DNA of 64,000 nt from Alphaproteobacteria bacterium (lineage in GTDB: Bacteria > Pseudomonadota > Alphaproteobacteria > Caulobacterales > Parvularculaceae): positions 62,849-126,848 of the forward strand of contig JAUIMC010000009.1 of NCBI GenBank assembly GCA_030433215.1, written 5' to 3'. The position numbers and the translations under genes are program-made. This document shows, one piece after another, positions 34,285 to 57,455 of this stretch. The notes below the pieces were generated by a model. The model was not told the origin of the DNA and made no database searches. It worked only from the letters and a program-made list of their open reading frames with translations. Within the stretch, counting starts at the first letter, position 1, and every line of letters begins with the position of its first letter.

Positions 34285-34812
34285 ATGCGCAAAATCTTGA
34301 TGACGATGGTCTTCAGCATGCTGGCGATTTCCTGTGCGCCGGACGGTCAGGGAACGGCGCTCGAAGAGCGCGTGCGCCGGCTTGAGGACGAGAAAGAGAT
34401 CCGCGCGCTGCTGGTGCGCTATGGCGAATATCTCGATGCGAAGGATTACGCCGGCTACGCCTCGCTCTTCGCCAGCGACGGCGTGTCGACCACCGGCTTC
34501 GGCAGTGCAACAGGACCGGCGGCCATCGAGGTGCTATTGGAAGAGAATATGGGCGCGCCGCCGCCCGGCTATATCAATAAGGACCGGCTCCACCTGATGA
34601 CGACCATGATTGTCGATGTCTCGGGCGATGCTGCGACCGCGCAGTCGCGCTATACGGTTTTCGATAAATCCGAGGGAGGACGGCCTGTCCCTTTGCATGC
34701 CGGACGATATGCGGACGTGCTTGTGCGCGAAAACGGGGCGTGGAAACTGAAATCACGGACTTCGGCCGGCGTCATTCCCTACCGGGCGCCGCCGCAAGCC
34801 GGTAAAAACTGA
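34285..34812 (+). CDS. SnoaL_4/NTF2-like lipoprotein (short type)
   Basis: Lipobox LAISC; RLEDEKEIRALLVRYGEYLD, RLHLMTT, GRYADVLVRENGAWK. Confidence 0.85.
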   Translation: MRKILMTMVFSMLAISCAPDGQGTALEERVRRLEDEKEIRALLVRYGEYLDAKDYAGYASLFASDGVSTTGFGSATGPAAIEVLLEENMGAPPPGYINKDRLHLMTTMIVDVSGDAATAQSRYTVFDKSEGGRPVPLHAGRYADVLVRENGAWKLKSRTSAGVIPYRAPPQAGKN

Positions 34813-34910
34813 GAAAGGCCGGCCCTTGTGGCGCAAGTCTGGGGTTCTCTCACGGCAATGAACTGCACAGGGCGAGGACGGACAAACGAAGCTTGGGAAT
34901 ATCTGGAGAG

Positions 34911-35504
34911 ATGACGATGCGGACTGCATTTCTGGCTATCGCTTTCGCCCCGCTCATGGCGGCCGCCTTGCCGGCCTGTTCGGCGGGCAACGCTGCGAAT
35001 GAAGAACTCGCGCAGCGCGTCCAGGCGCTTGAAGACGAAAAAGAGGTCAAGCGGGTGCTGGTCGAATATGGCGAGTTCCTCGATGCGCGCGACTATCATG
35101 CCTATGCGTCGCTCTTCGCCAGCGACGGCGTCTGGAGCGGCGGCTTCGGCACCTATACGGGGCCGGCGGCGATCGAGGCCATGCTCGAAGAAAATATGGG
35201 TTCCCATGCGGATGATTACATCAACAAGGAAAATTTCCACCTGAACACGACCATGGTCGTCGATGTGGACGGCGACACGGCGAAAGCGCGCTCGCGTTAT
35301 CTGTTCTTCGTCGCCTCGCCGGAAAACCGGCCTGTGGTCGCGCTCGCAGGGCGCTATGAAGACGTTTTGGTCCGCGAGGACGGGGCCTGGAAAATCAAGA
35401 CCCGCAAATCCCATGGCGTGATCCCTTACCGGGACGGCAACAAGCCGCCCCCGGCCCAGCCCCCGGCGGACATCAGCGACGCCCTGGACCGGGACCAGGA
35501 CTGA
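34911..35504 (+). CDS. SnoaL_4/NTF2-like lipoprotein (short type), tandem paralogue
   Basis: Lipobox LPAC; ALEDEKEVKRVLVEYGEFLD, NFHLNTT, GRYEDVLVREDGAWK. Confidence 0.85.
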   Translation: MTMRTAFLAIAFAPLMAAALPACSAGNAANEELAQRVQALEDEKEVKRVLVEYGEFLDARDYHAYASLFASDGVWSGGFGTYTGPAAIEAMLEENMGSHADDYINKENFHLNTTMVVDVDGDTAKARSRYLFFVASPENRPVVALAGRYEDVLVREDGAWKIKTRKSHGVIPYRDGNKPPPAQPPADISDALDRDQD

Positions 35505-35663
35505 CCGGTCGGCCCGCAATAGTTTAGTTTCTAACGATCTCGCGGTTTAGCGGCAAAAAGGGCGATGAAAAGCGCCGGCGGCCGGGCCTTAGCCGATGTT
35601 CTCCATGGACAAAGCCTGCGGTTCGCAATCAATCGTGTTTAGCGAGACTATGGCGACTAGCGC

Positions 35664-35692
35664 CCCGCCAGTTTAGTTCGTAAACTGGCGGG
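35664..35692. repeat. Perfect 12-bp inverted repeat between convergent genes
   Basis: CCCGCCAGTTTA-GTTCG-TAAACTGGCGGG. Confidence 0.6.
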
Positions 35693-35761: not shown

Positions 35762-36196
35762 CTAGAGGCCGGCGGGCAGGTCCGCCGTCACTTCACGCCG
35801 CTTGAAGCGCCAGCCCTCCGGCGTGGGGACGATAATGTCGCTATAGCTTCCGGCGATCGCGATCCGGAGCCCGGTGTCGCTCTCGCCCCCGTTTTCACGC
35901 TGTTCGATGAGCATCCAGCGCGACCAGGCGGTCGCGTCCCGGCCGCGCATGGTGATCGCGATGCTGCCGAAAATATGGACGCAAGGCGGCGTCGCCGCGA
36001 ATTCGCGCTCGACGAAAGCGGCCAGCGCCGCGCGTCCGGCGATGACCCCGTAGCGCTCGCCGCCGATCCATTCGCCGTCCGGCGCGAACAGAGCGGCCCA
36101 GCCGGGCGCGTCCTTCAGATCAAGCAGGCGGCCATATTCAGCCATCAGGCGCCGGATCGCTTCGGCATGCTCCGCATAGGGAATTTCCTCGGACAT
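35762..36196 (-). CDS. SnoaL_4/NTF2-like protein (short type, no signal peptide)
   Basis: EAIRRLMAEYGRLLD, CVHIFG, GSYSDIIVPTPEGWRF. Confidence 0.8.
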   Translation of the reverse strand: MSEEIPYAEHAEAIRRLMAEYGRLLDLKDAPGWAALFAPDGEWIGGERYGVIAGRAALAAFVEREFAATPPCVHIFGSIAITMRGRDATAWSRWMLIEQRENGGESDTGLRIAIAGSYSDIIVPTPEGWRFKRREVTADLPAGL

Positions 36197-36387: not shown

Positions 36388-37377
36388 ATGAGAAAATTCC
36401 TCAACAACCCCGCCGACGCCGTCGATGAAAGCCTGCGCGGTTTTGCGCGTTGCCATGCCGATCTCGTGGAGCTCGTGGAGCGGCCGCGTTACGTCAAACG
36501 TCAGCGCCTGACGCAAGGCAAGACGGCGATTATCTCCGGCGGCGGATCGGGTCATGACCCGCTTCACGCCGGGCTCGTAGGGCGCGGCATGCTCGACGCG
36601 GCTGTGCCGGGCGAAATTTTCTCCTCGCCGTCAGTAGAACAGATCCTGGCGGCGGCGGAAGCGGTCGGCGGCGAGGCGGGGCTTTTGTGCCTCATCAAGA
36701 ATTATTCCGGCGACATCATGAATTTCGAACTTGCGATGGAGATGTTCGACCGGCCCCATGCGAGCGTCATTATCGAAGACGATATCGGCGCGGCGGGCGG
36801 CGATGACACGGTTGGCCGGCGCGGCGTCGCCGGCACGGTCGTGGTCGAAAAGCTCGCCGGGGCCGCCGCTGAACGCGGCGAGGGGCTCGAGGCCTGCGCC
36901 GAGATCGCGCGCCGGGCTGCGGCGGCGACGCGCACTATCGGCGTGGCGCTCGGCGGCTGCCAGGTTCCGTCCGCGGACAAGGCCAACCTTGAGCTTGCGC
37001 CCGGCGAGATGGAAATCGGCATCGGCATTCATGGCGAGCCCGGGCGGCGGCGCGCGCCCATCGCGCCGGCGAATGAGATCGTCGAGGAGCTTATCGAGGC
37101 GCTCATCGCCGATTTTTCTCCGTCTCCTGACGATCCGCTGCTGCTGTTCGTCAACGGGCTCGGCGGAACCCCGCCCATGGAAACCTATATCATCTACGAT
37201 GCGGCGGCGCGCATGCTGGCGGCGCGGGGACTGACCGTCGCCCGCTCGCTCGTTGCGCCGCTGGTGACTTCGCTCGAAATGCCGGGGGCGTCGATTACGC
37301 TGACGAAGATGGAGGACGGGTTCCTCGATCTCTGGGACGATCCGGTGGTGACGCCGGGACTGAGATGGGGCGCATGA
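36388..37377 (+). CDS. dhaK: PEP-dependent dihydroxyacetone kinase subunit K
   Basis: SGGGSGHDPLHAG, GEIFSSP, KNYSGDIMNF, GRRGVAG, EIGIGIHGEPG, TSLEMPGASIT. Confidence 0.92.
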   Translation: MRKFLNNPADAVDESLRGFARCHADLVELVERPRYVKRQRLTQGKTAIISGGGSGHDPLHAGLVGRGMLDAAVPGEIFSSPSVEQILAAAEAVGGEAGLLCLIKNYSGDIMNFELAMEMFDRPHASVIIEDDIGAAGGDDTVGRRGVAGTVVVEKLAGAAAERGEGLEACAEIARRAAAATRTIGVALGGCQVPSADKANLELAPGEMEIGIGIHGEPGRRRAPIAPANEIVEELIEALIADFSPSPDDPLLLFVNGLGGTPPMETYIIYDAAARMLAARGLTVARSLVAPLVTSLEMPGASITLTKMEDGFLDLWDDPVVTPGLRWGA

Positions 37378-38027
37378 GCCTCGCGCAATCCCATAATCCC
37401 GCCGAGAATACCGGCGCCGCGCTCGAGCTGCTCGACGTGCTTTGCACTCTGTTGCTTGGCGCCGAAGACGAGCTCAACGGGCTCGACCGCGCTATCGGCG
37501 ACGGCGACCATGGCGGCAATCTCGCCCGCGCGTCGCGCAGCCTGTCAGAGCTTCGTCCCGAACTCGCTGAGCTTTCCATGGGCGAGGCCGTGACGCGCGC
37601 CGGCCGCGCGGTGGTGATGAGCGTCGGCGGCGCTTCGGGCCCGCTTTACGGAACCCTGCTGATGGAAATGGGCAAGGCGCTGCCTGACGAGCCGGGGCCT
37701 GGCGACTGGGCCGCGGCTTTTGCGGCGGGCGTCGACGGCGTCGCCCGGCGCGGCCGCTCCGCTGAGGGCGACAAGACCATGCTCGATGTGCTCGCGCCGG
37801 CGTCGCGCGCGCTTTCGGAAGAAGCGTCCGCAGATTTGCACGAAGCGCTCGCGGCGATGCGCGCGGCGGCGGAAGACGGCTTTGAAACATCGCGCGGCTT
37901 GCGCGCGAAACGCGGACGCGCCGCCTATGTGGGCGAGCGGTCCGTCGGACATGACGATCCCGGAGCGCGGTCGGCGCTGTTGTGCGTCGGTGCGGTTGCA
38001 GATTTTTTAGGGGAGAACAAGGGATGA
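37374..38027 (+). CDS. dhaL: Dihydroxyacetone kinase ADP-binding subunit L
   Basis: LDRAIGDGDHGGN, VGGASGPLYG, GDKTMLDV, RGRAAYVGERSVGHDDPGA; ATGA overlap with dhaK. Confidence 0.92.
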   Translation: MSLAQSHNPAENTGAALELLDVLCTLLLGAEDELNGLDRAIGDGDHGGNLARASRSLSELRPELAELSMGEAVTRAGRAVVMSVGGASGPLYGTLLMEMGKALPDEPGPGDWAAAFAAGVDGVARRGRSAEGDKTMLDVLAPASRALSEEASADLHEALAAMRAAAEDGFETSRGLRAKRGRAAYVGERSVGHDDPGARSALLCVGAVADFLGENKG

Positions 38028-38410
38028 GCGTGGCGCTTCTCATCGTTTCGCATTCCGCCGACGTCGCGCGCGGCACGGCGGATATGGCCCGGCAGATGGC
38101 CGGCGCCGATTTGTCCATCGCCTGGACCGGCGGCAATCCCGATGGCGGTCTCGGCACGAGCCTCGCCGCGATTACCGAACAGCTTGAAGCCGTCTGGCGG
38201 GAGGAAGGCGTCGCCATTCTGGTCGATGTCGGCGGCGCGGAGATGAATTCCGAAATGGCCATCGAACAGTTCGACAAGGCGAAAGCGAAGAAAATCCGGA
38301 TATGTCAGGCGCCGCTGGTGGAAGGCGCGATCATGGCGGCGGCGGAAGCGGCGTCCGGCGGCGGCCTCGACCAGGTGTGCCGCGCAGCAGAGGAATTTTC
38401 GCACGCGTGA
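38024..38410 (+). CDS. dhaM: DHA kinase phosphotransferase subunit (EIIA-Man-like)
   Basis: LLIVSHS (phospho-His), GG..DGGLGTS, LVDVGGA, APLVEGA. Confidence 0.9.
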   Translation: MSVALLIVSHSADVARGTADMARQMAGADLSIAWTGGNPDGGLGTSLAAITEQLEAVWREEGVAILVDVGGAEMNSEMAIEQFDKAKAKKIRICQAPLVEGAIMAAAEAASGGGLDQVCRAAEEFSHA

Positions 38411-38412
38411 CC

Positions 38413-38730
38413 ATGTCGAGTTCTCAGCCTTGCGATGCCGAATGGAGGCAAGCCACCCTGACCGTCGTCGGGGCGCATGGTCTTCATGCGCGTCCCGCGA
38501 TCCGGTTTTCCCGCGTCGCGAGGGGGTATTCCGCGCGCATTCAGATCTGCGTCGCGGACGATGCGCGCTGGGTTGACGCCAAGAGCGTGGCGAAGGTGAT
38601 GGGCCTTCAGGTCGAGTCGGGCAGGAAAATTCTATTGCGTGCGGCCGGGGACGACGCCGAGGCGGCGCTGGCGGGCCTGCGCCAACTGATCGAGACGGAC
38701 CTCGCCGGCGAAGGCGAAGATGGCGGATGA
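38413..38730 (+). CDS. ptsH: HPr phosphocarrier
   Basis: GLHARPA (phospho-His), VDAKS, LRAAGDDAEAAL. Confidence 0.9.
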   Translation: MSSSQPCDAEWRQATLTVVGAHGLHARPAIRFSRVARGYSARIQICVADDARWVDAKSVAKVMGLQVESGRKILLRAAGDDAEAALAGLRQLIETDLAGEGEDGG

Positions 38731-40274
38731 CTCGGCTCCCGGGAAAGGTCGCGTCGCAGGGCGTCGCCTCCGGAACGCTGCGGCGCGACGCTGTGGCCGC
38801 GCGGAGCGCAGGCAGGCCTGCTGACAGCGTGGCAGGCGCCGTTATCGAAGCGGCATGGCAGTTGCGCGCGCTGCAAGCCGCCGCGACTAGTCTGGGTTCG
38901 GACATTCTCGAATTTCAACTCGCCCTGCTTGAGGATGACGGGCTTGTCCTCGAAATGGTCCAGAAGGGCGCCGCGCATGGCGATGCCGCGCGCGCCATCG
39001 CCGAGGTTCTGGAAGAGCAGATCGCATCCTATCGCGCTGCGGCGGATGCGCGGTTTGCGGCGCGCGCGGCCGACCTTGAGGATCTCAAAAGCCGTCTTCT
39101 CGGCGCGCTGAAAGGCGCGGCGGCGCCGGCAAGGGCGCTCCCTGCGGGCACGATCCTCATTGCAGAAGAGATGACGCCGAGCCGCTTTCTTGAGCTCGAC
39201 CGCGCGAAAATCGCCGGAATCGTTGATCAGAAGGGCAGCGAGACGAGCCATGTCGCCTTGCTGGCGCGCGCGGAAGGCGTGCCTATGCTGGTCGCCGCCG
39301 GGCCTGTCGCGGCGGAATGGGAATCGCGTCCCGCCCTGCTCGATGCGGCGCACGGGGAGCTTGTCCTCGATCCCGATGCGGCGCTCATCCGCGATCGCGC
39401 CGGTCAGGCTTCTGCACAGGATGTTCCGTCATCGGAAGGCGAAGGACCGGCGGTTCTGTCCGATGGCGAAACGGTGCGGGTCAATCTCACCGTTAATGCG
39501 CTCGCGAGCCTAGACGAGGCACCGCCCGAATGGTTCGACGGCATCGGTCTCGTCAGGACCGAGCTCTTGATTACCGATGCGGAAGAAGTTCTGAACGCCG
39601 GGCGTCAGGCGAGCCTCTACCGGCCGCTGTTCGACTGGGCGCGGGAAAAGCCGGTGACCATCCGCCTGCTCGATGGCGGCGGCGACAAACAGGTGCCCGG
39701 CTATGCGCCGCCTCCGGGCGGCGGCGGTTTTCTCGGCGTGCGCGGCGCACGGCTTTTGATGCGGCGCGGCGATGTCCTGCGCGCGCAGCTCGCGGCGATC
39801 CTTGACGCCGCGGAAGGCCGGCCGGTGCGAATCATGGCGCCCATGATTACCTTGCCGGAGGAGATGCGGTTCTTCAGAACGGAGCTTGACCGCGCCATAG
39901 ACGCGTCCGGGGCGGACCGGGTGCAGGCGGCGCTGGGCATGATGGTGGAAACCCCCGCCGCGGCGCTCGACATCGATCGTTTCGATGCGGATTTCTTCGC
40001 TCTCGGCACGAATGATCTCGCGCAATATGTCCTGGCCGCCTCGCGCGACAGCGAGGCTTTGCCGCTTGGCGGGGAAATCCCGCCGGCGGTGCTTGAGCTT
40101 GTTCGGCGGGTCGTCGAACATGGCAGGAATAAAGGGCTTGCGGTGTCCGTTTGCGGCGATGTCGCGGCGTCTGAGGAAAGCCTTGGGCGGTTTCTCGCCT
40201 GCGGGGTGCGCTCTTTCAGCATCCCTTCGCGGTTTGCGCCCCGCTTCAAGCAGTATATCAGGACAGGGCTGTGA
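38727..40274 (+). CDS. ptsI: PTS Enzyme I (PEP-protein phosphotransferase)
   Basis: GSETSHVALLARA (phospho-His), GIGLVRTE, RLLDGGGDK, LGVRGARL, GMMVETP, GTNDLAQY, VCGD. Confidence 0.9.
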   Translation: MTRLPGKVASQGVASGTLRRDAVAARSAGRPADSVAGAVIEAAWQLRALQAAATSLGSDILEFQLALLEDDGLVLEMVQKGAAHGDAARAIAEVLEEQIASYRAAADARFAARAADLEDLKSRLLGALKGAAAPARALPAGTILIAEEMTPSRFLELDRAKIAGIVDQKGSETSHVALLARAEGVPMLVAAGPVAAEWESRPALLDAAHGELVLDPDAALIRDRAGQASAQDVPSSEGEGPAVLSDGETVRVNLTVNALASLDEAPPEWFDGIGLVRTELLITDAEEVLNAGRQASLYRPLFDWAREKPVTIRLLDGGGDKQVPGYAPPPGGGGFLGVRGARLLMRRGDVLRAQLAAILDAAEGRPVRIMAPMITLPEEMRFFRTELDRAIDASGADRVQAALGMMVETPAAALDIDRFDADFFALGTNDLAQYVLAASRDSEALPLGGEIPPAVLELVRRVVEHGRNKGLAVSVCGDVAASEESLGRFLACGVRSFSIPSRFAPRFKQYIRTGL

Positions 40275-40884: not shown

Positions 40885-41400
40885 GTGGCGAGTGAAGGTC
40901 CTGCCGGGAGCAGCGGGGCGGCGCTTTCGATTGAAGACCGCCTGCGCGCCCTCGAAGACGAACGCGAAATCCGTGAACTGATTATCCGCTATGCGCAGCA
41001 TCTCGACGCCCGCGACCATAAGGGGTATGCGGAACTTTTCGCCAGAGACGGGCGCTGGTCCGGCCGCATGGGCGACGCCGTCGGTCCTGAAGCGATTGAG
41101 AAAATGCTGGTCGAGGGCCTGGGGCCGACGCCGGAAGGTTTTCGCAACACCAAGAACTTTCATCTGATGAGCAATATCCTCATCGAGATCGACGGCGACA
41201 AGGCGAAAGCCGAATCGCGCCTGGTCTATTTCGCCCGCACGAAAGACGCGCGTCCCGGTCCCATGCTGGCTGGGCGCTATTTCGACGAGTTCGTGCGTGA
41301 AGACGGGCGGTGGCGCTTCAAGTTCAGACAGGTGCTCGGGGAAATCCCAACGCGCGAAGAAGCGCCGGTGCGCACGGCGGAGGAGGACGGACATGAGTGA
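40885..41400 (+). CDS. SnoaL_4/NTF2-like protein (short type, cytoplasmic)
   Basis: RLRALEDEREIRELIIRYAQHLD, NFHLMSN, GRYFDEFVREDGRWRF. Confidence 0.85.
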   Translation: MASEGPAGSSGAALSIEDRLRALEDEREIRELIIRYAQHLDARDHKGYAELFARDGRWSGRMGDAVGPEAIEKMLVEGLGPTPEGFRNTKNFHLMSNILIEIDGDKAKAESRLVYFARTKDARPGPMLAGRYFDEFVREDGRWRFKFRQVLGEIPTREEAPVRTAEEDGHE

Positions 41401-42049: not shown

Positions 42050-43380
42050 GCGGGGAAGCAACGCTCGACGTCCTCGAAGCGCATCTCGAAGCGGCGGAAT
42101 TACGCCTGGCGCGGCTCGCCTCCCATGAAGCGGTGGAGCGCCTGCAACGCAGCTACGGTTATTATGTGGACAAGGGCTTATGGTCCGCGGCGGCCGATCT
42201 GTTCGCCGAGGACGGAACCTGGGAATGGGGACAGAGCGGCGTTTACAAAGGGCGCGAGCGCATCCGCGCGGCGCTGGCCCTGCGCGGTCCCGAAGGTCTC
42301 GCCCAGGGCGAGCTCAACACGCACTTCACCTGCCAGCCCATCGTCACGGTCGCCGAAGACAACATGACGGCGAAGGCGCGCTGGCGCGCCGACATGCAGC
42401 TTTGCAAGAACGGCAAGGGAAGCTGGGCTGAAGGCACCTTCGAAAACATGTACGTCAATGATGACGGCGTCTGGAAGATCGCGAGTCTGCATTTCTATGT
42501 CACGGTGGAATGCGACTACGATCTCGGCTGGGTCGTGGGCGACATGCCCATGGAAGGCCCGAGCGAGGAGCTTCCCCCCGACGAGCCGCCGACGGAAGTC
42601 TACCAATCGCTGCCCGAGGTGTATCTGCCGGCCTATCACTATCCCAATCCGGTGACCGGCGCGCAGCCGAAAAAGCCTGTGCTCCCTGATCTTCCCGCCG
42701 GCGATGATCTCGGCGCCGACATTTCCGCGCTCTCTGAACGCATCGAACGGCTTGAGGATACGCGCGCCTGCGAAAAGCTTCAGCGCGCCTATGGCTATTA
42801 TGTCGACAAGGCGATGTGGGACGATGTGGCCGATCTCTTCGTTGACGAGTCTACGCTGGAGATCGGCGGGCGCGGCGTCTTTCTCGGCAAGAAGCGGGTG
42901 CTCGAATATATGGGCATCGGCCTTGGCCCCACGGGGCCCCAGCGCGAACAGATCATCAATCACCAGCAGTTTCAGGGCATCGTCAGTGTCGCCGAAGACG
43001 GCAAGACGGCGCGCGGGCGCTGGCGCGCCTTCGTCATCGGCGGCAGCTCATGGGCGCCGGTGAACTGGGGCGATTGCCTTTACGAGAACCATTACAGGAA
43101 AATCGACGGCGTCTGGGTGATGGACAAACTTCATGCGCCCTTCACCATGTACACGCTCTATTCGGAAGGCTGGCATAAAACGACGACGCCCAATACGCGG
43201 CCCGAAAGCTTTCCGCCGCCGCCGGATCTGCCGCCGACGGTCATCTATCTGACCTATCCGAATTATTATTGCGAACCTTTCCACTATCCCAACCCGGTGA
43301 CGGGCAAGGACGCGCCGCCTCCCAATCCTGCGGCCGGCGGCGTCGCGAACATGGCCGACTTCGCAGACGATGAGCGCTGA
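42046..43380 (+). CDS. Tandem long-type SnoaL_4/NTF2 protein, subtypes B+C fused (cytoplasmic)
   Basis: Two repeats, each with YGYYVDK...H...Q...EN.Y...DGVW... and a HYPNPVTG tail. Confidence 0.87.
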   Translation: MSGEATLDVLEAHLEAAELRLARLASHEAVERLQRSYGYYVDKGLWSAAADLFAEDGTWEWGQSGVYKGRERIRAALALRGPEGLAQGELNTHFTCQPIVTVAEDNMTAKARWRADMQLCKNGKGSWAEGTFENMYVNDDGVWKIASLHFYVTVECDYDLGWVVGDMPMEGPSEELPPDEPPTEVYQSLPEVYLPAYHYPNPVTGAQPKKPVLPDLPAGDDLGADISALSERIERLEDTRACEKLQRAYGYYVDKAMWDDVADLFVDESTLEIGGRGVFLGKKRVLEYMGIGLGPTGPQREQIINHQQFQGIVSVAEDGKTARGRWRAFVIGGSSWAPVNWGDCLYENHYRKIDGVWVMDKLHAPFTMYTLYSEGWHKTTTPNTRPESFPPPPDLPPTVIYLTYPNYYCEPFHYPNPVTGKDAPPPNPAAGGVANMADFADDER

Positions 43381-44761: not shown

Positions 44762-45324
44762 CCGAAGCCGAACTCGAAAAACTCGCCGCCGATGTGCGCT
44801 ATCTCAAAGACCGGGCCGACATTCTCGACTGCATGAACCGCTATACGCGCGGCGCTGACCGGCTCGACATGGAATTGATGCTGAGCGCTTATCATGAGGA
44901 CGCCACCGACGATCGCGGCGCCTTTACGGGCGGGCCGCGCGAACGGGCGAAATGGCTGTTCAAGTTCCTGTCGAGCCTCGATCACGCCACCCATCACATC
45001 ACGAATTTCACCATCGATATCGACGGCGATATCGCCCATTGCGAAAGCTATGTGATTACGACGCTGATCCCCAAGGACTCGAAAGAAGCGACGCTCGGCA
45101 CGGCGCGCTATATCGACCGCATGGAGCGCCGCAACGGCGAATGGCGCATCGCTCATCGCGAGGCGGTGATGGATTTCCATATCACAGTGCCGACGTCGGA
45201 AATGCATCCGAATGTCATGACGGGCGCGCGCGACAAGACCGACCGGTCCTATGCGCGCCCGCTTACCCTGTCGCCGGAAGGCGAGGCGCGTATGCGCGCC
45301 GGCGTCAACACGCCGCGCGAGTAA
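44758..45324 (+). CDS. SnoaL_4/NTF2-like protein (short type, cytoplasmic)
   Basis: LKDRADILDCMNRYTRGADRLD, THHITN, RYIDRMERRNGEWRI. Confidence 0.85.
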   Translation: MTEAELEKLAADVRYLKDRADILDCMNRYTRGADRLDMELMLSAYHEDATDDRGAFTGGPRERAKWLFKFLSSLDHATHHITNFTIDIDGDIAHCESYVITTLIPKDSKEATLGTARYIDRMERRNGEWRIAHREAVMDFHITVPTSEMHPNVMTGARDKTDRSYARPLTLSPEGEARMRAGVNTPRE

Positions 45325-45339
45325 GAGGAGGAACGGCTC

Positions 45340-51522: not shown

Positions 51523-52506
51523 ATGCTGCAAGCGAACGCAGCGGGCATTCGCGCCGTCCGGCTTTGCGCGGCGATAACCGGCGCCGTCCTGCTTGCCGCC
51601 TGCGCGCCATCTTCAAGCGATGAAGCCGCAGCGCCGCAGGACATCCTGATCGACGGCGCCCGCGTGTTCCCTGAAAGCGTGACCTCTGACAGCGACGGCG
51701 CCGTTTATGCCGGGAGCCTTGGCGGCGTGATCTACCGGGCCGAACCCGGCGCCGGCGTCGCCGAGCCCTGGATCGAACCGACGGAAGAGAACGGCCTCCT
51801 GGCGCTTTTCGGCGTGCTCGCCGATGAAACGCACGGCGTCTTATGGGTCTGTTCCAACCCGAATCCCTTCGCGGGCGGCGACGGGCCGAAGGTCTCGAGC
51901 CTTCTCGCCTTCGATCTTGAAAGCGGCGAGTTTGAGGCGCGCTATCCCTTCCCGGAAGGCCCGGCGGCCTGCAATGACATCGCCGTCGCCTCCAATGACG
52001 TCGTCTTTGTCACCGAAACAGCGGGCGGGCGGATCTTCCGCCTTGCGCCGGGCGCCACCGATCTCGCCCTTTTCGCCGAAGGCGAGAATCTTATCGGCGT
52101 CGACGGCATCGCATTCTCCGACGACGGAACAATGTACATCAACAATGTGCGCGCGCATCTCGTGCAGCGGGTCGAACGCGACGCCAATGGCGCCTATGCG
52201 GGCCTCACTGATCTGGCGCTATCCGAACCGGTGAACGGGCCTGACGGGTTGCGCCCGGTCGGCGGCGACAGCTTCCTTCAGGCGGAAGGCGCCGGTGGGC
52301 GCGTTGCGCTGATCGAAGTCGACGGCGACAGCGCAACAGTAACGCCGCTGCGCACAGGCCTTGCCTCTTCGCCCGGCGTTACGCGCGCCGGCGATGTCGG
52401 CTACGCCACCGAAGGCAAGATCCAATATCTGATTGACCCTGAATTTCAGGGTCAGGACCCCGGAGAATTTTACCTCCGGGCTTTCACCCTACCGGAGGGA
52501 CTATGA
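51523..52506 (+). CDS. SMP-30/gluconolactonase-like six-bladed propeller lipoprotein
   Basis: Lipobox LLAAC; FPES, ACNDIA, GVDGIA and GPDGL at the metal-ligand positions. Confidence 0.75.
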   Translation: MLQANAAGIRAVRLCAAITGAVLLAACAPSSSDEAAAPQDILIDGARVFPESVTSDSDGAVYAGSLGGVIYRAEPGAGVAEPWIEPTEENGLLALFGVLADETHGVLWVCSNPNPFAGGDGPKVSSLLAFDLESGEFEARYPFPEGPAACNDIAVASNDVVFVTETAGGRIFRLAPGATDLALFAEGENLIGVDGIAFSDDGTMYINNVRAHLVQRVERDANGAYAGLTDLALSEPVNGPDGLRPVGGDSFLQAEGAGGRVALIEVDGDSATVTPLRTGLASSPGVTRAGDVGYATEGKIQYLIDPEFQGQDPGEFYLRAFTLPEGL

Positions 52507-53216
52507 AGCGCATCATGCCCATGGCCGTGCTTTTGGCCGTCATGACCGCGTCCGCGCCGGCGCCGGTTTTGGCGCAAGGCGATCTGGACGCCGAAATCGA
52601 AACGCTGACCGAGCGCGTCGAGAAACTCGAAGGCATTCGCGCCGTCAAGAAACTCCAGCGCGCCTTCGGCTTTTATGTGGACCGCGGGCTCTGGGGCGAG
52701 GCGGCTGATCTCTTTGCCGCGGACGGCGCGATCGAGATCGGTCTCGACGGCGTTTATGTGGGCAATGAGCGCATCCGTGAATATCTGAAACGCCTGCATG
52801 GCGGCCAGGAAGGGCTGATCTACGGCCAGCTCAATGAATGGGTGACTTTGCAGCCGGCAATTTCCGTCGCCGAGGACGGCATGAGCGCAACCGCGCGCTG
52901 GCGCGATCTTGGCATGCTCGGTCAGTATAAGGAGCATGCCGAATGGCGCGACGGCATTTACGAGAACAGCTACGTCAAGGAAGACGGGGTCTGGAAGATC
53001 AAGTCGCTCCATCTCTACATCAATTTCGTGGCGCCCTATGAAAAGGGCTGGGCGCGGCTGAAGCCCGGCGAGGGGCTGACGCGCAGCGAGGCGTCGAAGA
53101 AGTTCAGGCCAGACCGCGGCCCCACGGTGACTTACGCGCCGTTTCCGGCCGTGCAGATTCCTCCCTTTCAGGCGCCCCATCCGGTCACGGGCGAAACCGT
53201 CGAAGGAGATCTGTGA
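52503..53216 (+). CDS. Secreted long-type SnoaL_4/NTF2 protein, subtype A
   Basis: Sec signal; FGFYVDRG, NEWVTLQP, FVAPYEKGW, PPFQAPHPVTG. Confidence 0.85.
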   Translation: MKRIMPMAVLLAVMTASAPAPVLAQGDLDAEIETLTERVEKLEGIRAVKKLQRAFGFYVDRGLWGEAADLFAADGAIEIGLDGVYVGNERIREYLKRLHGGQEGLIYGQLNEWVTLQPAISVAEDGMSATARWRDLGMLGQYKEHAEWRDGIYENSYVKEDGVWKIKSLHLYINFVAPYEKGWARLKPGEGLTRSEASKKFRPDRGPTVTYAPFPAVQIPPFQAPHPVTGETVEGDL

Positions 53217-53953
53217 TGCGTTCAGGCAAAACATTCATCCGGATTTGCTGCGCCGCTGCGGCGGGGGTCATGCCGGTGCTGGCGGCGGCGCCCGTCATGG
53301 CGCAATCGCTGGAAGCGCGCGTCGCCGATTATCGCGAGCGGGTCTCCCGGCTTGAAGATCAGGCGGCGATAGAAAACCTCCAGGCCACCTACGGCTATTA
53401 TTTCGACAAGGGCCTGTGGACAGAAGTTGCGAACCTCTTCGCCGACGATGCGAGTTTCGAATACGGCCAGCGCGGCGTTTATATCGGCAAGGACCGCATT
53501 CGCCGCGCGCTCTTGCTCTTCGGTCCTGAAGGGCTCGGCGAGGGCTATCTCAACAATCACACGCAATTGCAGAACGTCACCATCGTCGCCGATGACGGTC
53601 AGTCCGCCACGGCGCGCTGGCAGGGACCGGTGCAGCTCTCCGAACCCGGCGCCAGCGGCATCTGGGGCCTTGGCGTCTATGAGAACGAATATGTCAAAGA
53701 CGGCGGCGTCTGGAAGATCGCCAAGCTGCATTTCTACGTGACCGGCTGGACCGATTACGACAAGGGCTGGATGAAGTCGCTCATTCCCATGGAGGGCCAG
53801 AGCGCGGTGTACCCGCCCGATCAGCCGCCGACGGAAGTCTATCGCGCCTTGCCCGCGGCGTATCTGCCGCCCTTCAGTTTCAATCATCCGGTGACGGGAA
53901 AATCCCTGAAAGATCTGCCGATGGCCGGCGACGACATCGTGGGGCGCGAATGA
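53213..53953 (+). CDS. Secreted long-type SnoaL_4/NTF2 protein, subtype B
   Basis: Sec signal; YGYYFDKG, GPEGL, NNHTQLQ, DYDKGW...PMEG, PPTEVY, NHPVTG. Confidence 0.85.
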   Translation: MMRSGKTFIRICCAAAAGVMPVLAAAPVMAQSLEARVADYRERVSRLEDQAAIENLQATYGYYFDKGLWTEVANLFADDASFEYGQRGVYIGKDRIRRALLLFGPEGLGEGYLNNHTQLQNVTIVADDGQSATARWQGPVQLSEPGASGIWGLGVYENEYVKDGGVWKIAKLHFYVTGWTDYDKGWMKSLIPMEGQSAVYPPDQPPTEVYRALPAAYLPPFSFNHPVTGKSLKDLPMAGDDIVGRE

Positions 53954-54753
53954 TCATGAAAAAAATCTTGAAAACCATATCGCTCTCCGCCTTTTCCGCC
54001 GCGCTTCTGGCGGCCGCGCCTGCCTCGGCGCAAACGGCGGCGGAAAAACTCGACGCCCTCGACAAGCGCATCACGCGGCTTGAGGATATGAACCAGATCG
54101 AGCGGGTGCAGCGCACCTACGGTTATTTCGTCGACAAAAGTCAGTGGACGCCGCTTTCGAAACTCTTCTCGGAAGATGCGACGCTGGAAATCGGCGGCAA
54201 GGGCATCTTCCTCGGCCAGGACCGCGTGCTCGAATATATGCAAACCGCGTTCGGACCGGACGGCACCAAGCCGGGCGTCCTCGCCAACCACATGCAGTTC
54301 CAGCCCATCGTCGACATCTCGCCGGACGGCAAGACCGGCTGGGCGCGCAGCCGCGCCTATGTGATGAGCAATGGCGGCTGGGGTCTGCCGCTTTACGAAA
54401 ACGCCTATGAAAAAGGCGAAGACGGCAAATGGCGGATCTCCCGCCTCACCGGCCCCTTCACCATGTATGCGGGCTGGGAAGGCTGGGGCAAGACGGCGCT
54501 CAACAACACCTGGCCGGACAAGTTCGATCCGCCGCCCGATCTGCCGCCTTCCGTCATCTATCTGACCTATCCGGCCTATTACATCGTGCCCTTCCACTAT
54601 CCCAACCCGGTGACCGGCGAGGCGTTGATTCCCGACCGGGACGAAGTCGGCGCCTATCATCGCCCGCCCGGCACGCCGGAGCAGGAAAAGGCGCTCGCGA
54701 CCGGCCAGATGGAAGACGGCACGCAACCGATTGCAGAGCCGCCGAAGGACTGA
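53950..54753 (+). CDS. Secreted long-type SnoaL_4/NTF2 protein, subtype C
   Basis: Sec signal; YGYFVDK, TLEIGGKG, RVLEYM, NHMQFQ, PFTMY, PPPDLPPSVIYLTYP, PFHYPNPVTG. Confidence 0.85.
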   Translation: MIMKKILKTISLSAFSAALLAAAPASAQTAAEKLDALDKRITRLEDMNQIERVQRTYGYFVDKSQWTPLSKLFSEDATLEIGGKGIFLGQDRVLEYMQTAFGPDGTKPGVLANHMQFQPIVDISPDGKTGWARSRAYVMSNGGWGLPLYENAYEKGEDGKWRISRLTGPFTMYAGWEGWGKTALNNTWPDKFDPPPDLPPSVIYLTYPAYYIVPFHYPNPVTGEALIPDRDEVGAYHRPPGTPEQEKALATGQMEDGTQPIAEPPKD

Positions 54754-54757
54754 CCCG

Positions 54758-56896
54758 ATGTTGCCTGTCATGCGTTCCGCCATGCTCGCGCTCGCCGCGT
54801 TTGCGCTCGCCGCTTGCGGCGAGAAAACGGAAGATACGGCCGATAGCCAGCCCTCCGCCGCTGGCGGTCAGGGCGCTGGCGGCGAGATCAGCGCCGGGCG
54901 GCTTGCCGGCGCGGCGAACGAGCCTGAAGTCTGGCTGAGCGACGGGCGCACCTATTCGGCGCAGCGTTACAGCCCGCTGACGGAGGTCACGGCCGAGAAT
55001 ATCGAGGAGCTCGGTCTCGCCTGGTTCGACGATTACGACACCTATCGCGGCATCGAGGCGACGCCGCTCTACGCCGACGGCGTACTCTACAATATCCTCG
55101 CCTGGAACATCACCATCGCCTATGACGCGGCGACCGGCGAACGGCTGTGGACCTTCGACCCGGAAGTGCCCCGCGAAATGGGCCGTTACGCCTGCTGCGA
55201 GCCGGTCTCGCGCGGACTTGCCTTGTGGAACGACAAGGTCGTCATCGCGACGCTCGACGGGCGCCTGATCGGGCTCGACGCAAAGACCGGCGAAGAAGTC
55301 TGGAGCACGCAGACCTTCAGCAATGAATATCCCTACACGATCACCGGCGCGCCGCGCGTCTTCGACGGCAAGGTTGTCGTCAGCCAGTCGGGCGGCGATA
55401 TGGGCGTGCGCGGCTTTGTTATCGCGCTCGACGCGGACACCGGCGAAAAACTCTGGAAGTTTTACCTGACGCCCGGCAATCCGGCGGACGGTCCCGACGG
55501 CGAAGCCTCCGATCCGATCATGGAGATGATCCGGGAAACCTGGAGCGGGGAATACTGGAAGCTCGGCGGCGGCGCCAATGCCTGGGACTCCATCGCCTAC
55601 GATCCCGAGCTCGATCTCGTTTATGTGGGCACAGGCAACGGCTCGCCCTTGTCCTGGCATTACCGCAGCGAGCGTAAAGGCGACAATCTCTTTGTCTGCT
55701 CCATCGTGGCGCTCAACGGCGATGACGGCAGCTATGCGTGGCATTATCAGATGGTCCCCGAAGAAGACTGGGACTACACCTGCACCAGCTCCATCGTCAG
55801 CGCGGAGCTGACCATCGGCGGCGAAGAGCGAAAAGTTCTGATGCAGGCGCCGAAAAACGGTTTCTACTATGTCATCGACCGCGCGACGGGCGAGCTGATT
55901 TCCGCGGAAACCTATGTGAAGGTGAATTGGGCCGAGGGGATCGATCCCGAAACGGGCCGTCCCATCATCAATCCGGACATGCACTACGACACCGATCCGG
56001 TGCTGGTCTATCCGGGCCCGGGCGGGGCGCATAACTGGTTCCCCATGGCCTATAGTCCGCGTACGCAGCTTGCGTATTTTCCGGCCTATCAGTCGGGCCG
56101 GGTCTATGCGCTCGATCCCGATTACGAGCCGAAGCCGTTTCGTTCGAACAGCGGCTGGGGCGGGTATTCCGGCGACATCCTCGAAAAGCGCATGGCGCTT
56201 CAGGCCCAGGGCGACGCCGACGAACAAGCCTGGCTGACCGCCTATGATCCGGTGAAGCAGGAAATCGCCTGGCAGGTTGAAATGCCCCGTCACGGCAATG
56301 GCGGCGTCATGGTCACGGGGTCTGACCTCGTCTTTGAAGGCACCACGCGTCAGACCTTCGCCGCTTTCGATGCGGAGACGGGCGAGGAGCTGTGGTCCTA
56401 TCCGGTGCAAAGCTCGCCGGTGGCAGGGCCCATCAGTTACATGCATGACGGCGAGCAATATGTGGCGATCAACGCCGGCTGGGGCGGCGGCGCCGCGCAG
56501 ATCGAGCGTATGTCCGGGATCGACCGTCCCCGCGCCGCCGCGCGCTTGCTGGTGTTCAAGCTCGGCGGCGAAAAGGAATTGCCGCCCCTGAAAGCGCAGG
56601 AGCCTGTGCCCGCGCCGCCGCGCCTCGCCGCGTCGGAAGCGGAAGTGAAAAGAGGCGCGCAGCTTTACGCCGAAACCTGCGCGGTCTGCCACGGCCAGCG
56701 CGCCATGGGCGGCGTTTCCGACCTGCGCCACATGACGCAGGAAACGCACGCCAAGTTCAACGAGATCGTGCTCGGCGGGCTTTATGTGGACAAGGGCATG
56801 GCGAGCTTCGCCGACATTCTGAACGAAGACCAGGCTGAAGACATTCACGCCTATCTGATTGCGCGGGCCAATGAGGATTGGGGCGCGGAAAACTGA
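54758..56896 (+). CDS. Second lipoprotein quinohemoprotein (PQQ + heme c) dehydrogenase, type II
   Basis: Lipobox LAAC; QRYSPL, ACCE, GTGNGSP, WDYTCT, APKNGFYY, CAVCH. Confidence 0.92.
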   Translation: MLPVMRSAMLALAAFALAACGEKTEDTADSQPSAAGGQGAGGEISAGRLAGAANEPEVWLSDGRTYSAQRYSPLTEVTAENIEELGLAWFDDYDTYRGIEATPLYADGVLYNILAWNITIAYDAATGERLWTFDPEVPREMGRYACCEPVSRGLALWNDKVVIATLDGRLIGLDAKTGEEVWSTQTFSNEYPYTITGAPRVFDGKVVVSQSGGDMGVRGFVIALDADTGEKLWKFYLTPGNPADGPDGEASDPIMEMIRETWSGEYWKLGGGANAWDSIAYDPELDLVYVGTGNGSPLSWHYRSERKGDNLFVCSIVALNGDDGSYAWHYQMVPEEDWDYTCTSSIVSAELTIGGEERKVLMQAPKNGFYYVIDRATGELISAETYVKVNWAEGIDPETGRPIINPDMHYDTDPVLVYPGPGGAHNWFPMAYSPRTQLAYFPAYQSGRVYALDPDYEPKPFRSNSGWGGYSGDILEKRMALQAQGDADEQAWLTAYDPVKQEIAWQVEMPRHGNGGVMVTGSDLVFEGTTRQTFAAFDAETGEELWSYPVQSSPVAGPISYMHDGEQYVAINAGWGGGAAQIERMSGIDRPRAAARLLVFKLGGEKELPPLKAQEPVPAPPRLAASEAEVKRGAQLYAETCAVCHGQRAMGGVSDLRHMTQETHAKFNEIVLGGLYVDKGMASFADILNEDQAEDIHAYLIARANEDWGAEN

Positions 56897-56942
56897 CTGC
56901 GCGGCGGACGGCCGGCGCCGTCGCCGTGAAGGAGCGACTTGC

Positions 56943-57455
56943 ATGAAACGGCTGATGTTTCCGCTGGCTGTGCTCGCCCTTGTTGCAACGGGGCTCGCCG
57001 CGCCGGCGCGCGCGCAGGAAGCGTCGCCCGCCATGCAGGAATTGCGCGACCGCACCGCCATTCATCAATTGCTGCTCGACTATGGCCGCACGCTCGACGA
57101 GCGCGAATTTGAAGCGTTCGGGAATCTTTTCACCGAAGACGGCGAATACGGTCCCGCGGGCTCCATGACGAAAGGCCCGACGGCGATCGCCGACCAGATG
57201 AGCGCTGTCTTCGACGCCAACGCCATGGGCTTTCGCGAACCCAATTTTCACGTGTTCTTCAATGAAAGCATCAGCCTTGACGGCGACCGCGCGGAAGCGA
57301 CGAGCATGTCGTTCTATGTCGTGCCGGGCGAGGACGATCTGCCGAAGATCGCGATGATGGCGGCATACAAGGACGATCTTGTCCGGGTCGGCGGTGAATG
57401 GAAGTTCCAGCGCCGTGAAGTGCGCGGGCTGTCGCGTCCGCCGGCGCGTCAATGA
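56943..57455 (+). CDS. Secreted SnoaL_4/NTF2-like protein (short type)
   Basis: GGAG RBS; Sec signal ending ARA; ELRDRTAIHQLLLDYGRTLD, NFHVFF, YKDDLVRVGGEWKF. Confidence 0.85.
   Translation: MKRLMFPLAVLALVATGLAAPARAQEASPAMQELRDRTAIHQLLLDYGRTLDEREFEAFGNLFTEDGEYGPAGSMTKGPTAIADQMSAVFDANAMGFREPNFHVFFNESISLDGDRAEATSMSFYVVPGEDDLPKIAMMAAYKDDLVRVGGEWKFQRREVRGLSRPPARQ

Follow-up and report, generated by a model that had tools for sequence, protein, structure and literature searches.

Two parallel sets of LdpA-related domains in a SnoaL_4-rich gene cluster of a Parvularculaceae genome

Gene content of the locus

The window analyzed here, a stretch of 64,000 nucleotides from an alphaproteobacterial genome of the Parvularculaceae (contig JAUIMC010000009.1), contains twelve SnoaL_4 domains in 11 genes between positions 34285 and 57455, as found with Pfam (PF13577, cut-off 24 bits) and in agreement with the count of the first-pass annotation. 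A six-frame scan of the 3.75-Mb genome revealed that 12 of its 25 SnoaL_4 matches fall within this 23-kb stretch, which represents 0.6% of the genome length. By our own arithmetic, about 0.15 matches per stretch would be expected under an even spread (Poisson p ~1e-19), but this figure shows only that the clustering is not random, since tandem duplicates are not independent events. All twelve fall into the enzyme-type group of SnoaL_4 domains. In the alignment the motif Asp is present in all 12, preceded at a distance of five residues by Tyr in 11 domains and by Phe in L4, and 11 of the 12 share the downstream His, L4 again being the exception, with Trp in its place. A segment resembling x-R/L-L-E-D is seen in about nine of the 12 domains; modeling of a fused relative puts it within an N-terminal helix of 33-39 residues. 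The earlier description of the domains, i.e. Y/F-x4-D in all of them, the His in 11 and the xRLED segment in most, is thereby borne out.

The six short-type proteins form four lineages, and all six possess the residues Tyr-Asp-His-Tyr. S1 (34285..34812, plus strand, 175 aa, Pfam 94.9 bits) and S2 (34911..35504, alternative start 34893, plus strand, 107.8 bits) are exported, exhibit 61% identity to each other in the alignment, and carry the lipobox-like sequences LAISC and LPAC, respectively. S3 (35762..36196, minus strand, 144 aa, 87.3 bits), the twelfth domain, is cytoplasmic and has syntenic minus-strand counterparts in the related loci L004 and L030. S4 (40885..41400, plus strand, 99.3 bits) is also cytoplasmic and is translationally coupled to the long-type gene alpha, whose start it overlaps by 8 nt, with AGGAGG upstream; a short SnoaL_4 gene immediately precedes the long set in L001, L004, L005, L007, L029 and L030 as well. 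S5 (44758..45324, plus strand, 188 aa, 73.8 bits) is a cytoplasmic protein with a C-terminal extension, and syntenic genes for similar proteins of 185-188 aa follow the MFS gene in L001, L004 and L030. S6 (56943..57455, plus strand, 90.3 bits) has a Sec-type leader and is 32% identical to S4, and likewise to S3. Across 50 sequences of the short-type family Tyr36, Asp41, His93 and Tyr132 are invariant, a set that corresponds to the catalytic one of LdpA. Among solved structures the short type is best matched (E 7e-12) by 3EF8 from N. aromaticivorans, annotated as "putative scytalone dehydratase"; it is an uncharacterized structural-genomics entry and offers no clue to function.

By inspection, S1, S2, S6 and the long-type L4, L5 and L6 have hydrophobic N-terminal leaders ending in A-x-A, which are absent from the cytoplasmic paralogs S3, S4, S5, L1 and L2-L3. 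This distribution gives either side of the membrane three short and three long domains. The first-pass annotation had listed two lipoproteins, one secreted and three cytoplasmic short proteins: the division into three exported and three cytoplasmic forms stands, while lipidation of S1 and S2 is plausible from their lipobox Cys but not conserved, as only one of four orthologs retains the Cys. The leader itself is conserved in S2 orthologs.

Several other gene groups are interspersed with the SnoaL_4 genes. A PEP-dependent dihydroxyacetone kinase relay (dhaK, dhaL, EIIA-man, HPr and Enzyme I; 36388..40274, plus strand; Pfam Dak1, Dak2, EIIA-man, PTS-HPr and PEP-utilizers) is embedded in the island and occupies the same position in L004 and L030. 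The stilbene-forming pathway considered below leaves this relay unaccounted for, which counts against it. The cytoplasmic long set is followed by an MFS transporter of the aromatic acid/H+ symporter type (43370..44761, plus strand; TIGR00895, E 4e-70, below the cut-off), a gene kept at this place in L001, L004, L029 and L030. The gene row from L4 to S6 includes a type II quinohemoprotein (PQQ and cytochrome c) alcohol dehydrogenase (54731..56896, plus strand; PDB 1KV9, E 4.5e-195; TIGR03075 above the cut-off), and the last gene of the exported row encodes a lignostilbene alpha,beta-dioxygenase devoid of a signal peptide (58546..60018, plus strand; equivalog NF053778 of NCBIfam, 866 bits versus a cut-off of 800). 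The latter stands in a co-oriented row with gaps of 47-68 nt, an adjacency observed for this genome. LigW-like decarboxylases and a TonB receptor are encoded upstream.

Two exported proteins labeled DUF8021 (32180..34086, minus strand; PF26061) were each modeled as a tandem NTF2-like fold (AF2 pLDDT 84, pTM 0.83), and their listed Foldseek matches at E <= 0.001 are all NTF2-like (Lsd19, MonB, LEH, KSI, NsrQ and others). A fused double DUF8021 protein, recognized by sequence paralogy (46231..48057, minus strand), lies downstream of its neighbor, a second quinohemoprotein dehydrogenase (48035-50647, minus strand). Syntenic DUF8021 and PQQ genes are found in L004, L030 and L006.

The long-type domains and their relation to LdpA

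The six long-type domains can be divided into three classes, alpha, beta and gamma, each present twice, once in a cytoplasmic and once in an exported set. The cytoplasmic set comprises an alpha gene, L1 (41393..42049, plus strand, 218 aa, Pfam 96.3 bits), which keeps Tyr36, Asp41 and His96, and a fused beta-gamma gene, L2-L3 (42046..43380, plus strand, 444 aa, 176 bits in 2 stretches), with two SnoaL_4 domains and the gamma center Tyr249, Asp254, His306 and Tyr346. The exported set comprises three coupled genes with Sec-type leaders: L4 (alpha, 52503..53216, plus strand, 237 aa, 90.3 bits), with a degenerate center (Phe for Tyr, Trp for His), L5 (beta, 53216..53953, plus strand, 245 aa, 95 bits) and L6 (gamma, 53950..54753, plus strand, 267 aa, 72.9 bits), with the full Tyr/Asp/His/Tyr set. 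L1 is 52% identical to L4, the N-terminal half of L2-L3 is 53% identical to L5 and its C-terminal half 54% identical to L6, i.e. 52-54% within a class across the sets, versus 36-42% between classes. Start and stop codons overlap between L1 and L2-L3 (ATGA), L4 and L5 (TGATG), and L5 and L6 (ATGA).

The long type is a true homolog of LdpA by sequence (E 1e-27, 37-43% identity; for L4, E 1.2e-27 against LdpA in the PDB) and by fold (TM 0.72-0.77 over 218-240 columns). It shares with LdpA a long SnoaL_4/NTF2 cone whose C-terminal arm is extended, a cofactor-free character, the three-body assembly that we propose here, equivalents of Tyr35, Asp40, His97 and Tyr147 kept in gamma, and a lignostilbene dioxygenase gene nearby. 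The Tyr/Asp/His/Tyr residues are catalytic in LdpA, where their mutation abolishes or lowers activity, and related sets occur in scytalone dehydratase, BaiE and LinA (PMC9942872), which fits the comparison with the Asp-His dyad of these enzymes made earlier. All three resemble the long type in the His-Asp dyad, the Tyr oxyanion hole, cofactor-free eliminations and trimeric organization (PMC9942872), and match it in fold at TM 0.72-0.80, BaiE also, weakly, in sequence (E 1.8e-4); they differ in being short single-domain homotrimers of about 20-27% identity with unrelated substrates.

In the alignment, none of the six long domains has motif II of LdpA (Glu143-Tyr165-Gln170), which has been described as unique to that enzyme, and they also lack two insertions that mark the LdpA clade. 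Elsewhere in the genome there are four single-domain paralogs, three of which have the full motif II while the fourth has His for Gln; true LdpA-type paralogs among the genes outside the island are 63% and about 51% identical. None of the six long domains is, on sequence grounds, an ortholog of LdpA nor, probably, of PcfL. PcfL (Saro_0796) is a phenylcoumaran DC-C gamma-formaldehyde lyase, which releases formaldehyde from its substrate to yield a stilbene (PMC11323797). Encoded by one gene, it has 44% identity to LdpA and 8 of 11 LdpA active-site residues in common, and as an LdpA homolog that uses a different dimer it shows diversification of the long type with respect to substrate. NTF2 homologs from N. 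aromaticivorans and SYK-6 with at most 40% identity to LdpA were inactive on DGPD (PMC9942872), which makes a beta-1 substrate unlikely for the long sets.

Fusions, conservation and synteny of alpha, beta and gamma

Among more than 2,500 homologs, alpha, beta and gamma occur elsewhere as split genes, as alpha-beta or beta-gamma proteins, and in many cases as alpha-beta-gamma fusions of 650-750 aa, some of them with leaders. An exhaustive profile search retrieved 497 clusters at E <= 1e-30, comprising triple, alpha-beta, beta-gamma and single forms. A fused relative of 667 residues (P0002, 79% identical) was modeled as a compact single body (pLDDT 95, pTM 0.94), and its domains, each including the C-terminal arm, match the LdpA structures 8ABT/U/V/W at TM 0.72-0.77 in Foldseek. 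LdpA itself is a trimer joined through the C-terminal arm (PMC9942872). The fusions in all combinations, the coupled genes and the compact model, the last being a single chain of a relative, suggest that the six long domains constitute two alpha/beta/gamma sets whose members would behave as subunits of a pseudo-trimer; here three different domains would stand in place of the identical chains of the LdpA homotrimer, and, unlike LdpA, an exported version exists.

Across 92 fusion sequences, which average about 50% identity, Tyr/His/Tyr of gamma are invariant and its Asp is found in at least 90%. In the consensus of beta, Tyr takes the position of the His, and the His of alpha is only the majority residue. 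Since gamma alone keeps the full catalytic set family-wide, a pseudo-trimer with one conserved active site is suggested, in which the role of alpha and beta would most likely lie mainly in structure or substrate binding. Besides gamma, however, four of the other five long domains of this genome still carry the Asp-His dyad; cytoplasmic alpha and both betas retain Tyr/Asp/His, so that activity here may not be confined to a single site.

A precedent for several differentiated NTF2 domains acting as one unit is provided by Lsd19 and MonBI-MonBII, the best fold matches of the DUF8021 proteins of the island. Unlike the long sets, these have two domains, belong to the limonene-epoxide-hydrolase-like subfamily and work in polyether biosynthesis, not in catabolism.

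The whole island recurs in the sphingomonad loci L004 and L030 and part of it in L029, and the S4-like, triple-fusion, MFS and S5-like genes are found together in L001. In the gammaproteobacterial L006 and L003 an exported triple fusion adjoins DUF8021 and a PQQ-cytochrome c gene. More distant homologs have varied contexts, e.g. tannase and esterases (L005, L007) or an aldolase and a metallo-beta-lactamase-fold protein (G100). Among relatives the long set is rare: 5 of 101 genomes of the family have a match, and only 2 have multi-domain forms.

Possible function of the two sets

We favor, with moderate confidence, the interpretation that the locus is the core of a conserved sphingomonad catabolic island, made up largely of cofactor-free NTF2-fold enzymes in two parallel sets, each containing an alpha/beta/gamma complex. 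Either side of the inner membrane would then have its own trio of differing short SnoaL_4 enzymes, together with a single LdpA-like complex in which alpha, beta and gamma replace the three identical chains. In the putative active site, two Tyr would bind a substrate oxygen, phenolate or enolate, and the Asp-polarized His would act as the base in a cofactor-free elimination, with loss of formaldehyde, water or aryloxide. As the Glu-Tyr-Gln acid triad is missing, the reaction or the substrate should differ from that of LdpA; a candidate would be a substrate that needs no acid-assisted loss of the benzylic OH, e.g. one previously oxidized by the periplasmic quinohemoprotein dehydrogenase. The likely substrates would be phenolic dimers or oligomers from plants or lignin, imported via the upstream TonB receptor, and the products probably include at least one stilbene, to be cleaved by the co-transcribed lignostilbene dioxygenase.

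The same architecture might instead act on substrates other than lignin dimers, such as polyols, glycerol-containing plant esters, terpenoid or steroid-like alcohols, or polyether-type compounds, with oxidation by the quinohemoprotein dehydrogenases followed by dehydration or cleavage as in BaiE or scytalone dehydratase, and with the dioxygenase serving a separate role. This alternative is unlikely, with several points in its favor: the island has kept the dihydroxyacetone kinase relay within it, type II quinohemoprotein dehydrogenases oxidize a broad range of alcohols, BaiE is a significant sequence match, DUF8021 resembles the epoxide-opening tandem NTF2 enzymes Lsd19, MonB and LEH, and the contexts of distant homologs vary. 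However, LdpA is by a wide margin the closest solved and characterized relative, the dioxygenase is tightly spaced in its co-oriented row, the MFS protein belongs to the aromatic-acid type, and upstream genes encode LigW-like decarboxylases and a TonB receptor.

The first-pass annotation had envisaged twelve parallel lyases, i.e. twelve (or eleven) independent homo-oligomers, each specific to a linkage or stereoisomer of a lignin-dimer pool. With the Asp-His dyad in 11 of the 12 domains of this genome, four divergent short-type lineages, dozens of NTF2 homologs in sphingomonads (62 in SYK-6; PMC12997858) and single gamma-like genes standing alone in some relatives, the proposal has some appeal, but we consider it improbable: the long domains form two sets, as indicated by the fixed alpha-beta-gamma order, the fusions, the coupled start and stop codons and the compact model, and catalytic conservation is asymmetric, with the full set kept family-wide by gamma alone and exported alpha lacking both Tyr and His. 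It is more doubtful still that the long complex is not an enzyme but a ligand binder, carrier or scaffold, delivering e.g. hydrophobic phenolics to the dehydrogenase or transporter: numerous NTF2-fold proteins bind ligands, two domains out of three have a degenerate catalytic center across the family and the complex recurs beside the dehydrogenase, but the cytoplasmic copy has no dehydrogenase partner, and the gamma residues that persist through such divergent sequences are those on which LdpA activity depends (PMC9942872).

SnoaL_4 domains and the short-type proteins

Following a listing of the ORFs, which were then scanned with Pfam, we found twelve SnoaL_4 (PF13577) domains in 11 genes, as the first-pass annotation had claimed, each of the 12 domains scoring 73-108 bits (gathering score: 24 bits). 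The count is also borne out when all 3.75 Mb of the genome are searched in six frames: of the 25 SnoaL_4 domains detected, 12 lie inside this 23-kb stretch, where an even spread would put ~0.15 such domains. The short-type proteins are S1 (34285-34812), S2 (34911-35504), S3 (35762-36196, minus strand), S4 (40885-41400), S5 (44758-45324) and S6 (56943-57455), and the long-type domains are L1 (41393-42049), L2 and L3, which share one gene (42046-43380), L4 (52503-53216), L5 (53216-53953) and L6 (53950-54753). The sequence features ascribed to these domains were recovered in our alignment A1: the Asp of the Y/F-x4-D motif occurs in all twelve, preceded five positions earlier by Tyr in 11 and by Phe in L4; L4 also has Trp at the position of the downstream His, which the other 11 domains keep; and most of the domains carry the "xRLED" segment, which in the structure model of a fused relative is part of a 33-39-residue N-terminal helix. 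The proposed spread over compartments was confirmed, with one reservation. Hydrophobic leaders ending in Ala-x-Ala are present in S1, S2, S6, L4, L5 and L6 and absent from the cytoplasmic paralogues, but the lipoprotein nature of S1 and S2 is plausible only, and we rejected it as a conserved trait, because the lipobox-like Cys is retained in just one of four orthologues.

An assignment to the beta subunits of ring-hydroxylating dioxygenases was rejected, since the matches to PF00866 (14-24 bits) stay under the cut-off of 27 and the window ORFs scanned include no Rieske or alpha-subunit gene. Polyketide cyclases were dismissed because PKS genes are absent, and the Pfam scan gave no match to the scytalone dehydratase, BaiE or LinA families at E <= 0.01.

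By sequence, the short proteins S1-S6 look like separate enzymes. The best match of S4 is 3EF8, an uncharacterised structure from N. aromaticivorans, and LdpA was matched weakly. Identity is 61% between S1 and S2, 45% between S4 and S1, ~32% for S6 against either S4 or S3, and ~23-26% for S5 against the other short proteins, with no significant BLAST match between S3 and S5; this pattern divides the six into four lineages. Tyr36, Asp41, His93, Tyr132, Asp134 and Arg148 (S4 numbering) are invariant in 50 short-type sequences, the six from the window included, and all homologues of this type are without a functional name.

Three classes of long-type domains and their relationship to LdpA

Comparison of the two sets of long-type domains, one cytoplasmic and one exported, reveals a regular pairing: L1 is 52% identical to L4, the N-terminal half of the 444-aa protein is 53% identical to L5, and its C-terminal half is 54% identical to L6, compared with 36-42% between domains that do not pair. 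The long domains thus form three classes, alpha, beta and gamma, and the window has each class in one form that bears an export leader and in one that lacks it. An overlap of 8 nt links S4 to cytoplasmic alpha, an ATGA overlap connects alpha to beta-gamma and also exported beta to gamma, and a TGATG overlap joins exported alpha to beta; the S4-alpha, alpha/beta-gamma and exported alpha/beta/gamma genes are translationally coupled. A word-index search with the beta-gamma protein retrieved >2,500 homologues, none with a functional name, and collinear alpha-beta-gamma fusions, some of them with leaders, account for many of those with 650-750 aa. A close homologue (80% identical) is carried by a cultured strain, Sphingobium nicotianae H33. 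A profile run exhaustively against 1.84 billion cluster representatives found 497 clusters (50% identity) at E <= 1e-30, the best 150 of which include triple, alpha-beta and beta-gamma forms as well as single alpha, beta or gamma proteins. Such fission and fusion in all combinations at a fixed order is as expected of obligate partners.

The AlphaFold2 model of one fused relative (P0002, 667 residues, 79% identical, 92-row alignment) has a pLDDT of 95 and a pTM of 0.94, values at which the predicted mutual arrangement of the three cones can be regarded as confidently fixed. Its top structural matches are chains of LdpA, one of the characterised gamma-formaldehyde lyases of lignin dimers: in Foldseek the long-type cone together with its C-terminal arm aligns to 8ABT-8ABW over 218-240 columns (TM 0.72-0.77). 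The PPF/YHYPNPVTG tail is conserved in all six long domains of the window. In LdpA the arm wraps around an adjacent protomer and holds together a homotrimer (PMC9942872) that is formed from a single gene, whereas the window set consists, by sequence, of three paralogous classes, coupled or fused. The simplest reading is that alpha, beta and gamma make up a pseudo-trimer, presumably with threefold geometry. To our knowledge, LdpA and PcfL are the only characterised long-type NTF2 lyases, both of them single-gene homotrimers, and full-text literature searches turned up no report of an LdpA-like protein that is heteromeric or triple. It appears that a sister family has turned the LdpA-type homotrimer into a three-gene or fused pseudo-trimer with one site conserved. 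Alpha, beta and gamma would be best expressed jointly, since lone subunits could be inactive or insoluble.

Of the relatives with known activity, LdpA is the nearest: its structures match L4 at E 1e-27, BaiE is matched by L4 weakly (phmmer, E 1.8e-4), and similarity to BaiE, scytalone dehydratase and LinA is otherwise at the level of the fold. Motif I of LdpA is the His97-Asp40 dyad, accompanied by an oxyanion hole of Tyr35 and Tyr147, and motif II, described as "exclusive to LdpA", is Glu143-Tyr165-Gln170 (NaLdpA numbering), which protonates the departing benzylic OH; NTF2 homologues with <=40% identity were inactive on DGPD (PMC9942872). Motif I and the oxyanion Tyr residues are complete in both gamma domains, in cytoplasmic alpha and in exported beta (A1, A4); in cytoplasmic beta Tyr147 is replaced by Phe, and in exported alpha (L4) Tyr35 is replaced by Phe and His97 by Trp, so that the Asp-His dyad is kept in five of the six long domains of this genome. 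In the cytoplasmic set the gamma residues are Tyr249, Asp254, His306 and Tyr346 of the 444-aa protein, and the His is His96 in alpha and His93 in beta. Motif II is missing from all six (A4): position 143 is occupied by Gly, Arg or Ala, position 165 by Phe, Leu, Ala or Gly, and position 170 by Val, Glu, Trp or Tyr.

Four single-domain paralogues of the LdpA/PcfL type are encoded on other contigs of this genome (C31:37439-37948, C24:77811-78314, C30:6699-7184 and C14:76799-77299); they are 63%, 51%, 51% and 51% identical to NaLdpA and keep Glu143 and Tyr165 in all four cases and Gln170 in three. In alignment A4 these paralogues and the six window domains fall into two clades, and two insertions present in the LdpA clade are absent from the window clade. 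The six long domains are thus LdpA homologues that fail a defining feature of LdpA. The C31 paralogue adjoins an SDR gene, as expected of a beta-1 locus (LdpA plus LdpB/C-like). On contig C30, the LdpA-type gene is divergent from a gene for a lone 218-aa protein of the alpha/beta/gamma clade (586-1242 of locus L027, minus strand), best aligned to the gamma part of the profile; three further genomes of this genus also have lone gamma-like genes.

The three classes differ in the conservation of the catalytic residues, which was read from the lists of invariant and >=90% positions and the consensus lines of 92 fusions (mean column identity ~51%). Gamma has the counterparts of Tyr35, His97 and Tyr147 without exception and that of Asp40 at >=90%; in alpha, Tyr and Asp reach >=90% and His is merely the majority residue; and the beta consensus has Tyr at the position of His. 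With the set conserved to this degree in gamma only, this asymmetry indicates that, family-wide, one site is under strict constraint, that of gamma. For members of the clade from the same genus that have a single domain, the gamma section of the profile gives the best alignment, which fits gamma as the ancestral catalytic form.

Genomic neighborhood and the DUF8021 proteins

The order of genes in the island comprises two DUF8021 genes, S1 and S2, S3 on the minus strand, the genes dhaK, dhaL, EIIA, HPr and EI, and a 140-aa ORF, followed by S4, alpha and beta-gamma, an MFS gene, S5, an AraC gene, and DUF8021 genes, after which comes a PQQ-cytochrome c gene. This order is repeated in two metagenomic sphingomonad contigs (L004 and L030, 81-84% identity) and in part in a Sphingomonas MAG (L029). 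The small ORF of the window (40339-40755, plus strand, 138 aa) shows a faint HTH_19 match and has counterparts of 140-143 aa at the same place in L004, L030 and probably L029. The first quinohemoprotein dehydrogenase ORF (48035-50647, minus strand) has a 5' end ~150 codons too long, overlapping the divergent AraC gene (50421-51383, plus strand); its true start is probably near 50200. Two gene rows are putatively under AraC control.

The exported row consists of a lipoprotein-like SGL propeller, alpha, beta, gamma, a type II quinohemoprotein dehydrogenase (1KV9, E 5e-195), S6, a second propeller and a leaderless lignostilbene dioxygenase at the row end (866 bits against the NCBIfam equivalog cut-off of 800), whose adjacency is an observation from this genome. 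The two SGL/strictosidine-synthase-like propellers (51523-52506 and 57523-58488, both on the plus strand) bracket the row, the first with a lipobox-like LLAAC and the second with a cleavable-looking leader. A TonB receptor and two LigW-like amidohydrolases are encoded upstream of the row; an RND pump is encoded downstream.

Analysis of more distant loci reveals recurrent associations of the triple fusion. One locus (L001) has a core of an S4-like gene, the triple fusion, an MFS gene and an S5-like gene, and two others (L005 and L007) combine the triple fusion with a short SnoaL_4 gene, tannase, DUF3237, esterase, MFS and TonB receptor genes, with an SDR gene nearby in L005 and not in L007. DUF8021 recurs beside the triple NTF2 protein and a PQQ dehydrogenase in distant genomes: in a gammaproteobacterial locus (L006) an exported triple fusion is directly followed by DUF8021 and quinohemoprotein dehydrogenase genes, and in L003 the three families occur within 8 kb. 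Among 101 genomes of the family the long set was matched in five, all from one genus, with multi-domain forms only in the present genome and a same-genus relative (G100:C7:538000-557999). The latter encodes two alpha-beta-gamma fusions of 679 and 703 aa, 8 kb apart, surrounded by TonB receptor, AraC, amidohydrolase_2, SDR, MFS, metallo-beta-lactamase-fold and HpcH/HpaI aldolase genes.

The DUF8021 proteins of the window, i.e. two exported proteins of 310-324 aa (32180-34086, minus strand) and a fused double form (46231-48057, minus strand), were identified from the precomputed PF26061 label, which is found on a window protein and on 120 homologues. Pairs of Cys are conserved in them, and many of their Arg, Glu and Asp positions are invariant. 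The model of the 324-aa protein (pLDDT 84, pTM 0.83) shows two helix-plus-curved-sheet, NTF2-like cones in tandem. Foldseek gave 22 matches at E <= 0.001, each of them with an NTF2-like fold, the best being the tandem epoxide-opening enzymes Lsd19 and MonBI-MonBII. The TM values are 0.26-0.36 for the whole chain and 0.44-0.67 against single-domain targets, the whole-chain values being low; the NTF2-like fold class is therefore supported, but the relation is remote. If this predicted fold is accepted, the region would hold about twenty NTF2-superfamily domains, not twelve.

Proposed chemistry

The two-set NTF2 architecture is real, structured and experimentally tractable, and the chemistry that we infer for it centres on gamma. 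This domain would hold the phenolate or enolate oxygen of the substrate between its two Tyr residues, and its Asp-polarised His would act as the base for a cofactor-free elimination. As the acid triad of LdpA is absent, the substrate should not need acid-assisted loss of the benzylic OH; it may carry a group that leaves more readily, as the phenylcoumaran acted on by PcfL does, or a carbonyl introduced by the neighbouring dehydrogenase may allow retro-aldol loss of formaldehyde or E1cB dehydration. LdpA and PcfL release formaldehyde and a stilbene; for the long set of the window the one pointer to such products is the adjoining lignostilbene dioxygenase gene, whose co-orientation speaks for a 4-hydroxystilbene as one product at least.

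The island also contains a full PEP-dependent dihydroxyacetone kinase relay (DhaK, DhaL, EIIA-man, HPr and Enzyme I; 36388-40274, plus strand), found at the same island position in L004 and L030. A link of the kinase to formaldehyde assimilation was rejected, since the window ORFs scanned include neither a transketolase-type dihydroxyacetone synthase nor a gene for formaldehyde detoxification. The triose kinase relay is not accounted for by a stilbene-forming pathway, and its position outside the elimination scheme is the main reason for keeping an alternative in which the substrate is not derived from lignin or a three-carbon fragment is released.

The bacterial lignin-dimer pathways known to us are cytoplasmic and NAD- or glutathione-dependent. 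Judging from its leaders, the alpha/beta/gamma family is also present in an exported form, beside quinohemoprotein dehydrogenases, and full-text literature searches yielded no account of a pairing between SnoaL proteins and such enzymes. A quinohemoprotein dehydrogenase of SYK-6 reportedly oxidises DCA. A broader reading, which we regard as rather improbable, is that the exported module is a periplasmic route that cuts lignin oligomers or dimers without NAD or glutathione. Its parts would be the type II quinohemoprotein dehydrogenase, the pseudo-trimer, the tandem-NTF2 DUF8021 proteins, and the short SnoaL_4 proteins, either as lipoproteins or in secreted form. A PQQ-driven oxidation at C-alpha, or the formation of a quinone methide, could come first, for instance, and beta-aryl ethers could then undergo cofactor-free elimination and hydrolysis of the enol ether. 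The mirrored cytoplasmic set would then complete the breakdown, and the dihydroxyacetone kinase would salvage the three-carbon side-chain fragment. If true, periplasmic cofactor-free steps would change the current view of the place and the stage at which bacteria attack lignin fragments and would offer simple cofactor-free catalysts for lignin valorisation. Finally, an as yet unassigned "dimeric" enzyme catalysing C-gamma elimination from erythro-DGPD was purified in 1991 from strain TMY1009 (mentioned in PMC9942872), and it might be a member of the alpha/beta/gamma family.
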